64,000 nucleotides of DNA from Gammaproteobacteria bacterium (GTDB lineage Bacteria; Pseudomonadota; Gammaproteobacteria; JAJFKG01), in the NCBI GenBank assembly GCA_965116795.1, contig OZ220716.1, positions 1,930,503 to 1,994,502 on the forward strand, read 5' to 3'. How positions within the stretch are numbered: position 1 is the stretch's first letter; every line of letters starts with the position of its first letter. Shown piece after piece: positions 56,474 through 59,697 of this stretch. The translations under genes and the position numbers were made by a program. The notes under the pieces were generated by a model that saw nothing but the letters and a program-made list of their open reading frames with translations, was not told the origin of the DNA and did no database searches.

Positions 56474-57342
56474 GCCATCTCCGTATGATGTGACCGACTA
56501 ACAATACTGCCGCAGATCATACACTGTGAACCCTATACTCAGCAAAAATAAAAAATACTTACGCTAACATGATGATATTGACTAAGTAGGCTCAATTCCT
56601 TAAGCTAACGATTATGATATTTCTTTTCAGTACAGCATTAACATGCGTTTTATATCTGATCCACAAGGTTATTGTTGGCAAGGCAAGGGACATTATGCAT
56701 TAGCCTTTTTAATTGGGATCAGTATGACTCAAAGCTGGTCAATATTACCCACGTCGATGGTGATTACCTGTGTTGCGATTGTGGCTGCACTGTTACTGAT
56801 AATTGCTTGCTATTGGCGCCTGTCTATTATGGCTTATGTTGCGTGGATAATGCTGGGTTGGGCATGGTTATTTAGCAATGCAACGCCAATATTAGCTTGG
56901 CATTTGCCCTCACCATTTATTGGGCAAACCTGTTTAACGTATGGAGAGATAGTCAGTGAACCAATAACTATTGGTCACCGTCAACGATTTATCATGGCGT
57001 TGCATAGTTTGCAATGCGGTCAGCAACATATGACGTTCGATCAGCCTAAGCGTGTATTGCTTAATTGGTATAGCATGCCAAAACAGGTCAGGGTAATGCG
57101 TACCGATCACTGGCGACTCACAATCAAATTAAAACCCGGGTGGGGTAAGGCAAATCCAGGCAGTTTTGATAGTGAAAAATGGTTATTAACCCAACGGGTA
57201 CATTATGTTGGTTATGTGATTAATAGTATTGATAATCAGCAACAAGTTGGTAGTAATCAGCATGTCATTAGGCAACACATCAGTCAGTGGCGCATCGATA
57301 TTCAACAGTATTTACGAAATGCCTTATCGACTTCACCCGGTC

Positions 57343-57905
57343 GTCAATTACAACCGGCTGAAGCCGGTGGCTTGATAATACGCTTGTAAAGCAGATTATA
57401 CAGCTAAAGCATCAGTGCTCTGAGATCTTGAAATTATCTTCTTTGTGATGCGCTTCTTGATCTTCGATGTATGCCTGCATATCTGCTTCATTTACATTGC
57501 CAACCGTTACTGCAAAATAACCTCTTGCCCACATGTGTTGTCCCCAATACCGTTTCTTCAAATGAGTAAATTCTTGCAATAACTTTCTACCACTTTTACC
57601 CTTGATATATTGCATCAGCTTTGACAACGACAGATTTGGTGGAATGAATAGCAGCAAGTGAACATGATCTGGACTCATACTTCCACTAACTATGTCAACG
57701 TAATTTGAACGACATATTTCTCTGATCAATTCTCTTGCTCTATTTCCAACCTCTCCTGTCAAAACTCGATACCGATATTTTGTGCAAAATATCACGTGAT
57801 ATTTCAAATTGTAGATGCTGTGGGAGCCATGCTTGTATTCCATTTCGTAATTGTACTGAAGTGTTCGCCTGAAGGCGAGGGTGTTTTCCCATCCCACCTA
57901 ACTAC
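57343..57905 (-). mobile_element. IS200-type element of the IS200/IS605 family (tnpA only), 563 bp
   Basis: Subterminal hairpins CGCCTTCAGGCG and ACCGGCTTCAGCCGGT. Right end TTGAC, left end adjacent to TTTAT, no duplication. Confidence 0.9.
57412..57843 (-). CDS. tnpA: IS200/IS605 HUH (Y1) transposase
   Basis: YHVIFCTKYR, DHVHL, KGKS, WARGYF, YIEDQ. Confidence 0.95.
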   Translation of the reverse strand: MEYKHGSHSIYNLKYHVIFCTKYRYRVLTGEVGNRARELIREICRSNYVDIVSGSMSPDHVHLLLFIPPNLSLSKLMQYIKGKSGRKLLQEFTHLKKRYWGQHMWARGYFAVTVGNVNEADMQAYIEDQEAHHKEDNFKISEH

Positions 57906-59697
57906 ATAAATTATTGCGTGCGATGTTAGTCGGTGAGCGAGCGCAGTTATCACCAACAACTTGGCAGGTATTGCAAGCGACTGGCACGAGTCATTTGATG
58001 GCAATTTCCGGATTGCATATTGGGATGATTGCAACATTAGTTGGTTTTGTTGCACTGCGTCTTTGGCGCTGTGGTGGATCATTATGTTTAGTTGCACCAG
58101 CACCATTAGTTGGCTATAGCGCCGGATTAATCGCAGCTGTTTTTTACAGCGGGTTAGCGGGGTTTACCTTACCAACTCAACGTGCGTTGATGATGTTTAG
58201 CGTATTGGTGATGGCATTCATATGTCGACGTCGTTGGTCATTATTGCAAGGATTGTATATCGCACTATGGTGTGTTTTATTATTTGATCCACTGGTGACA
58301 TTAACGATTGGTTTTTGGTTATCATTTACCGCTGTTGCAGCAATTAGTTACGCTGTTGCTGGTTATCGATCGCCAAGTCGTCTCTGGCAATTAACCCGTG
58401 CCCAATTGGCCGTTAGTGTATTACTTGGACCGTTAACGTTGTGGTTTTTCTCACAATTGTCCCTGGTTAGTTTACTGGCTAATGCAATTGCTATCCCCTG
58501 GATTGGTTGGGTTGTGTTGCCAATCGGGTTTTGTGGTTTGATCATATCAAGTCTATCTCCGGCATTGGGACAATGGTGTTTGCATGTTAGTGCGACTTTA
58601 TTACATTATTTATGGCAGTATTTAACCTGGTTAAGTTATATTAAACATATACAATGGATACATCCGATCACCCATGTCGGCGTATTGTTTAGTGCAATGA
58701 TTGGTGTATTATTATTATTAGCACCACGCGGTTGGCCAATGCGTTGGTTAGGCGTGTTATGGTTATTGCCAGTATATTATTTTCCACTGTCTACTGCGCC
58801 GGCTTATGGTGCAGTAGCATTTACATTGCTTGATGTAGGACAAGGGCTGGCGAGTGTTATCCGTACCCAACACCATACGTTACTATATGATACGGGTTTG
58901 CGTTACGGTAATGTGAGTAACAGTGGTGATAGTGTGATTATTCCTTATTTACACCAACAAGGGATCACCAGCATTTCTCGGATCGTATTAAGTCATGCCG
59001 ACAGTGATCACAGTGGTGGGTTAGCCGCAATAGTAAATGCCTTTCCCGTTGATGATGTGATCAGCAGTGAGCCTGCGCAATTATCTATTGATAGTCATCG
59101 ATGTCAGACAGGTCAACAATGGCAGTGGGATGGGGTACGGTTTCGTGTACTGGCGCCGCCTACTGATACAGCTCAATTAACACATTGGCGTGATAATGAT
59201 AAATCCTGTGTGTTACGTATACAGACAGCATCTACTAGTTTGTTGTTAACCGGTGACATTGAACATAAAACAGAGGATTATTTAGTTGAGTCACAGCCAG
59301 AACAATTGGCAAGTGATGTATTAATTGTGCCACATCATGGTAGTCGCACCTCATCAACTGAATCATTTATTAGTGCAGTTAGTCCTAAACTCGCTTTATT
59401 TCCGGTTGGTTATCACAATCGTTTTGGCTTCCCACATGCTGAGGTATTAGAACGCTATCAGGCCAAGCATGTTCAAACCACATTAAGTTGGCGTTGTGGA
59501 GCACTGACATTACAGCTTGATGGTAGTCCACAGCAGTGGCAGCCACATTGTTGGCGTGCTGAGCATCCAGTATTTTGGCAAGATCTGCCCAAAGATGGCG
59601 TTTTTGTTACAAGATACCCTGAGACAAATGACTAAATTTTACCCAGAAATGATTGCTATTTTACTGTACAATCGCCACGTCACAGGGTAATTCGTTT

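Follow-up and report, generated by a model that had tools for sequence, protein, structure and literature searches.

Can an insertion sequence (IS) lodged in a competence gene serve a bacterium as a reversible switch for DNA uptake, or does it mark the loss of that ability? The question is posed by comEC, which is split by an IS200-type element in a 64,000-nucleotide (nt) window of the genome of a Gammaproteobacteria bacterium (GCA_965116795.1, contig OZ220716.1, positions 1,930,503–1,994,502 of the forward strand; the window is the whole stretch analysed, and unprefixed coordinates refer to it). The original prediction, made from the letters of the window, held that the element can leave comEC exactly and so might act as a reversible competence switch. 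We give a probability of about 0.78 to another reading, in which a mobile, tnpA-only IS200 at a TTTAT site in an otherwise undamaged comEC, together with a frameshifted dprA elsewhere in the genome, means that natural transformation has been lost very recently, not that it is under a regulated switch. The host genome assembly (G000; 2,447,832 bases in one contig) was compared with genomes of the same genus (G001) and the same family (G002); only three genomes in the order of the host are available for comparison.

The split comEC gene and its insertion sequence

The 5′ frame of comEC runs into the element and stops at 57389, which gives a product of 248 amino acids (aa), and the 3′ frame comprises 573 aa (Table 1). 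Deletion of 57343–57905 (563 nt) leaves a single frame of 809 codons, from the ATG at 56643 to the stop at 59635. Because 15 of the 17 sliding 563-nt deletions that we tried likewise give 809 codons, the frame alone leaves the ends unfixed; both ends are fixed by comparison of four genomic copies, by homologue spacing and by covariation of the guide and cleavage motifs. The predicted boundaries and the 809-aa ComEC therefore hold on these counts. Element lengths of 560 or 566 nt were ruled out by homologue spacing and guide logic.

Table 1 Features of the split comEC locus and of comEA
Feature	Position	Strand	Evidence
comEC 5′ part: N-terminal membrane helices, DUF4131/OB fold	56643..57342	+	Pfam DUF4131 2.7e-21; open reading frame list; homologue alignment
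IS200-type insertion sequence, 563 base pairs (bp), tnpA only, no target duplication	57343..57905	-	Sequence; genomic copies
Right end: guide CAAG (57374-57371), hairpin ACCGGC-TTCA-GCCGGT (57368-57353), cleavage motif TGAC ending at 57343	57343..57374	-	Sequence; covariation
tnpA: Y1 HUH transposase, 143 aa, HVH motif and tyrosine intact	57412..57843	-	Pfam PF01797 1e-43; NF033573; alignment with PDB 2xm3/2xma
Left end: guide AACA (57885-57882), hairpin TCGCC-TTCA-GGCGA (57878-57865)	57865..57885	-	Fold; kept in relatives
Target pentanucleotide TTTAT, host DNA within the comEC coding sequence	57906..57910	-	Precedes 4/4 genomic copies
comEC 3′ part: complete Competence channel domain, metallo-beta-lactamase nuclease domain (HADSDH motif)	57906..59635	+	Pfam Competence 7e-59, Lactamase_B 1e-17; TIGR00361 340 bits
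comEA: intact, 102 aa, ComEA HhH region	37895..38203	+	TIGR00426 over cut-off

Neither half of comEC carries a further lesion, as had been claimed: both are stop-free, and all 62 columns that are invariant among 13 relatives are retained (62/62), whereas in a held-out test each of the 13 relatives deviates at 1 to 10 invariant columns. Both halves are as near to the relatives as the relatives are to one another, and a single residue (X at the break) lies between them, as in 12 of the 13 aligned homologues; L010 has a four-residue insertion there. In the same-genus and same-family genomes comEC is uninterrupted, with one open frame of 775 aa and 785 aa, respectively. As both halves are uneroded and keep every invariant column, we conclude that comEC was under purifying selection until recently. 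Compared with most relatives, the start at 56643 adds about 14 codons; a Shine–Dalgarno-like AAGGGA lies near 56684 and is followed by an out-of-frame ATG at the start position of the relatives. A possible loss of the comEC start codon through a one-base deletion near 56691 was not counted as a lesion.

The transposase is intact, in agreement with the original prediction. TnpA scores 156 bits against NF033573 (cut-off, 55), and its HVH motif and catalytic-helix tyrosine align with those of the structurally known transposases listed in Table 1. Its start is most likely the ATG at 57843 and not the GTG at 57897, as the relative on a Candidatus Megaera polyxenophila plasmid (NZ_CP104168.1) has the same length of 143 aa. 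No Shine–Dalgarno-like sequence for tnpA is present at 57843–57870, from which the AGGAG-bearing spacer of the Megaera relative is missing, and a TACAAT six bases upstream of the ATG suggests that the tnpA mRNA may be leaderless. The element has room for tnpA alone, with no tnpB or iscB, no integrase and no replicon; the TnpB domain PF07282 gave no match in G000, and IscB was not searched for separately.

Subterminal hairpins are present at both ends, and terminal inverted repeats are absent. The left-end hairpin folds; the right-end hairpin is plain in the sequence and shows compensatory changes in a related element in G192, although other pairings were preferred in the minimum-energy fold of the 63-nt end. 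Each 4-nt guide lies 8 nt before the loop and pairs with its cleavage motif (AACA with TTAT, and CAAG with TGAC). We take the pairing register to join guide positions 1-2-4 to motif positions 2-1-4. This register fits the AAAG/TTAC pair of IS608, for which guide and cleavage-motif pairing has been described (PMC3201880; citations throughout refer to particular passages or tables of the papers named). The Megaera and G192 elements share about 70% DNA identity with the comEC element over its full length (108 of 143 TnpA residues are identical in Megaera), and all three have the same left end, TTTAT|GT, and guide AACA. At the right end, guide and cleavage motif covary, from CAAG/TGAC here to CAAA/TGAT in Megaera and GAAG/TCAC in G192, by two independent compensatory changes. 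This adds a small covariation series for the guides and cleavage motifs of IS200 elements. Both relatives carry extra sequence ahead of tnpA that the comEC element lacks. Given the pairing, peel-and-paste transposition with a sealed donor joint is the expected mechanism (PMC5027513).

G000 holds four copies of the element, mutually identical over 563/563 nt, an identity that points to recent spread. The original prediction placed TTTAT at the left end of the comEC copy and asked about the others: TTTAT precedes all four and TTGAC ends them, with flanks that differ beyond, and TTTAT also precedes related elements wherever the left flank is in view. The copy at G000 2165959–2166521 interrupts an IS66 transposase, and its clean removal rejoins a 519-codon frame; together with the homologue spacing left in comEC after removal, this indicates that insertion made no target-site duplication. 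No long frame is interrupted by the remaining copies (G000 1999336 and 2220022). The predicted terminus is no more than 210 kb from any of the four. Beyond G000 the element was found by DNA search in 4 of 400 genomes of the class (one further genome was unscored), at full length in only one. The 90% cluster of its TnpA holds 12 records from several sources, which makes it a widespread mobile element. A second IS200 family in G000 (TnpA 43% identical) has three identical copies, at 1186743, 1351414 and 1657201, each after TTTAT; a similar family is abundant on the Megaera plasmid, so that both families are shared with a protist symbiont.

The interrupted allele was sought in other samples. Twelve sequencing runs matched, available as contigs only and with no RNA run among those listed, and the four examined (X1–X4, from two studies) all carry the inserted allele with no listed differences from the assembly over 3.5 kb. 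The insertion is thus not cleanly confined to one isolate, which had been named as an outcome that would count against a switch; the runs may nevertheless be one clone, given that no sequence differences separate them. No contig joint skips the element in these four runs, one of which (X3) reaches about 9,400-fold depth, but contigs drop rare variants and this is weak evidence. Flank contigs extend 29–30 letters into the right end in all four runs and 24–25 into the left end in X1, X3 and X4, below the bridging bar of 31, so the runs show that the inserted allele is present and not that the empty allele is absent. In X2 the pieces leave 57911–57988 uncovered, and in X1 the element has about 4.2 times the depth of its flanks.

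No same-species strain with an empty site was found: the search returned one distant locus among genome contigs and 80 loci at 32–51% identity among metagenome contigs. The comEC 5′ product and MsbA both form single-member protein clusters. Among 100 related comEC loci none contains an IS200 TnpA, and 96 are stop-free across the insertion site. The TTTAT target is not conserved at the homologous comEC position in G001 or G002.

dprA and the remaining uptake genes

The original prediction took decay of other uptake genes as evidence against a switch, and in the assembly one such gene is indeed broken. dprA (locus L024, G000 957280–958630, outside the window) carries a perfect 238-bp tandem duplication (238/238 nt; G000 957802–958282) that shifts its frame. 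The dprA profile matches twice across it; the frame stops after about 190 codons, and the second copy opens a 254-aa frame without the first 47 profile positions. Both G001 and G002 have a whole dprA. Of 16 perfect tandems listed in G000, this duplication is the sole out-of-frame one with a unit longer than 50 nt. An IS of about 1,040 bp (G000 956135–957176) lies just downstream of dprA.

The remaining uptake genes are in good order. comEA is intact, as predicted. comF, comM and recA, together with type IV pilus genes that we name pilA, B, C, D, M, N, O, P, Q, T and U from Pfam matches and synteny (the individual pil names are presumed), match their relatives and are stop-free. At a second pilus locus, which we take to be MSHA-like, an 878-bp IS with seven copies lies between the secretin and ATPase genes (G000 596176–597053); these genes are adjacent in G001.

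How unusual are two such breaks? As a background, 1.21 of the roughly 1.5 Mb of G001 supplied 800 frames, each 150 aa or longer, which gave 548 conserved orthologues in G000. Of these, 22 were flagged as broken and four are real: comEC, dprA, lon and ttcA. The other 18 were dropped, 17 because their stops lay no more than about 30 residues from the alignment end and priA because it has an in-frame insertion. lon (G000 ~2122120) has a one-base frameshift in a run of A, with no second copy by tblastn; ttcA (G000 ~1602500) has a frameshifting deletion. Each of the two may be a real lesion or an assembly error. Given comEC, the chance of another break in dprA, comM or comF is 0.016, and that of one in about 20 com and pil genes is 0.11, both post hoc; many of the 548 orthologues are essential, so any dispensable gene would be enriched among the breaks. 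As a cause of the two broken genes, we rate relaxed or negative selection on DNA uptake somewhat above pure chance.

The host is probably a host-associated bacterium, rich in insertion sequences and repeats. About one-quarter of G000 lies within repeats of at least 200 nt, and the genome encodes many eukaryote-like repeat proteins and kinases, which in such quantity are typical of host-associated bacteria. Within the window, orphan low-complexity, Sel1-like and ankyrin-like proteins with serine-rich tails are encoded at 642–5135, 23975–25930, 38881–40014 and 42885–45205. A cluster at 12961–17489 (kinases, decarboxylase and HMG-CoA reductase, as we name them from their sequences) is presumably a mevalonate pathway; such clusters occur in some intracellular gammaproteobacteria.

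A probable recent loss and its rivals

We envisage that the IS200 element arrived as a single-stranded circle by peel-and-paste and inserted 3′ of TTTAT without duplication, as its family would lead one to expect. Recently active, it would have struck one of the 11 TTTAT sites in comEC and knocked the gene out, and dprA would have been broken around the same time, earlier or later. The element likely still peels out at low frequency, perhaps more after DNA damage, and reseals comEC. Such excision would restore only the channel, revertants would gain little because DprA is broken, and the element would have no route back to the comEC site. The inserted allele would persist because DNA import is dispensable or costly in the host. 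A recent neutral knockout had been put forward as the simpler alternative to a switch; a recent knockout, whether through neutral drift or under selection, is the best explanation.

Several points weigh against this reading. The dprA duplication is seen in the assembly only and could be an assembly error, as could the lon frameshift, and 22 further partial matches fell outside the one-by-one inspection. The absence of any erosion in comEC, as well as the intact pilus genes, comEA, comF, comM and recA, would also be expected of a switch. With 73 of the 11,222 TTTAT sites of G000 in the listed com and pil genes, four copies choosing uniformly would hit any such gene 2.6% of the time, a figure that ignores that essential genes cannot be hit. 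Finally, both lesions are revertible in principle, and comEC revertants probably arise, considering that ISDra2 excises at about 2e-3 and about tenfold more often after ultraviolet (UV) or gamma irradiation (PMC2806898, Table 1).

The rival that survives best, although unlikely, is that dprA is really intact and its duplication an assembly error. A lone, recent comEC knockout would then be combined with rare, unregulated excision, giving a small competent subpopulation by one-way reversion that is not programmed. The duplication is perfect and known from the assembly only, the one-base lon frameshift suggests residual assembly errors, and the other uptake genes examined are all intact. Excision in the family reaches 1e-3 to 1e-2 in model systems (PMC2806898, Table 1) and 0.70% in one study (bioRxiv 10.1101/2023.03.14.532601). 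However, the start of the duplication coincides with the short repeated motif GATGGT, a trait that many real duplications probably share, and the assembly is otherwise clean: 544 of the 548 orthologues have no internal break, in addition to the agreement with the four runs.

The proposed switch itself is very unlikely. In it, the host would retain the IS as a lock on comEC that stress releases: replication stress or damage would yield single-stranded DNA, which would trigger excision and thereby competence. What stands of that proposal is an intact IS200/IS605 element, an uneroded comEC and the exact restoration of the gene that is expected on excision; low-rate excision is likely too, perhaps more after damage. 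Scarless excision by TnpA is published behaviour of the IS200/IS605 family (PMC3201880, PMC5027513, PMC2806898), used as a reporter in tetA (PMC2806898) and lacZ (bioRxiv 10.1101/2023.03.14.532601), and the damage-induced rise in ISDra2 excision restored an interrupted tetA (PMC2806898). Exact restoration, however, is not special to comEC but generic to the family, because the copy in the IS66 transposase is removed just as cleanly. With dprA frameshifted, excision would restore only the channel and alone would likely be insufficient for transformation.

Nor does the site behave as that of a switch. It is not conserved and shows no recurrence in the 100 comEC loci, and the choice of target is made by TTTAT alone, of which the genome offers 11,222 sites; in combination with the lack of a site-specific integrase, this makes excision likely to be one-way. 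Of five properties by which we judged a switch, precise excision that restores the gene is predicted in silico, and three are absent: an otherwise intact pathway (as judged from the assembly), a conserved and recurrently occupied site, and return to the same site. An excised copy would rarely return, as the element has neither integrase nor replicon and faces 11,222 equivalent targets. The arrangement is also young, as the identical copies indicate, which leaves little time for domestication.

Orientation points the same way. From GC skew and the polarity of the KOPS motif we place the origin of G000 at about 644 kb and its terminus at about 2,011 kb. The active strand of the comEC copy is on the predicted leading-strand template, whereas five of the seven IS200 copies in G000 are on the lagging template; this argument is soft, as the comEC copy lies only 24 kb from the terminus and skew maximum. 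The leading-strand template is the less favoured side for excision. Thus, with dprA broken, the site not conserved, no path of return and clean removal generic, we do not uphold the reversible competence switch.

Slimmer still is the chance that comEC is not fully inactivated. The insertion separates the OB fold from the channel. Translation from TTG 57914 or ATG 57923 could make an OB-less ComEC of the 3′ part, which covers Competence profile positions 1–266 of 270 plus the nuclease domain. ComEC proteins without DUF4131 do exist (PMC6299819; PMC12455585), but loss of the OB fold from Bacillus subtilis ComEC abolishes transformation (PMC12455585), no Shine–Dalgarno-like sequence lies just upstream of either start, and dprA is broken regardless. 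Promoter and terminator scans were at chance level, with 5 promoter-like matches found and 6.8 expected. Downstream of comEC on the same strand, msbA, lpxK and accD (59653–63573) must be transcribed despite the IS; their promoter probably lies within the comEC 3′ part and could preserve that DNA.

Equally slight is the chance of a bet-hedged competence with two locks, in which accumulation of single-stranded DNA would peel the IS200 out of comEC while RecA collapses the 238-bp duplication in dprA, so that DNA damage would open both in a rare subpopulation. Were this so, the 563-bp IS and the tandem duplication would act jointly as a competence switch that responds to damage, in an otherwise non-transformable, repeat-rich symbiont; the literature searched, from which subscription papers were mostly absent, gave no report of such a pairing.

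Comparison with known systems

The comEC element belongs to the tnpA-only IS200 group of the IS200/IS605 family. With the paradigms IS608 and ISDra2 it shares a Y1 HUH TnpA, subterminal hairpins, 4-nt guides 5′ of the hairpins, insertion 3′ of a fixed motif without target duplication and, by prediction, scarless excision. It differs in lacking tnpB or iscB, in its length of 563 bp, in its right-end motif TGAC and in that its excision is predicted only. The accessory RNA-guided nuclease gene of the IS605 group is absent. TTTAT is also the motif of ISGst2 (bioRxiv 10.1101/2023.03.14.532601).

Competence genes are known to harbour mobile elements (PMC12378983; PMC11472951). In Listeria, a prophage in comK provides reversible active lysogeny, and the likeness to our locus is that a competence gene harbours an element and regains its frame when that element excises precisely. 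Once excised, the comK prophage is maintained as an episome and goes back into the same site on cue, and in known reversible switches generally the excised element survives as an episome and is reinserted (PMC13492144). In contrast, the comEC IS200 lacks a replicon and a site-specific integrase, its site is not conserved, and it has no demonstrated cue.

The closer parallel is Piscirickettsia salmonis, an IS-rich bacterium in which comEC is disrupted by insertion sequences in every genome, and pilus genes and dprA, along with much of the pilus and com set, are often kept (PMC12955456; PMC10689435, Table S3C/D). Disruption of comEC is called rare in PMC12955456, which also describes impaired growth of P. 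salmonis carrying a foreign comEC from Legionella or Vibrio. The elements there are IS30, IS982, IS701, IS630, IS91 and IS3 (PMC10689435, Table S3C), not IS200 as here; and whereas the P. salmonis lesions are old, eroded and called irreversible, with dprA intact, our locus has one fresh IS200, an uneroded comEC and a broken dprA. The locus is thus an early-stage case of the IS-disrupted comEC known from P. salmonis. It offers a clean snapshot of the first step in the loss of natural transformation, in which two transformation-specific genes are freshly broken and the pilus is untouched; it parallels the older, eroded state of P. salmonis and is in keeping with the conflict that has been described between mobile elements and transformation.

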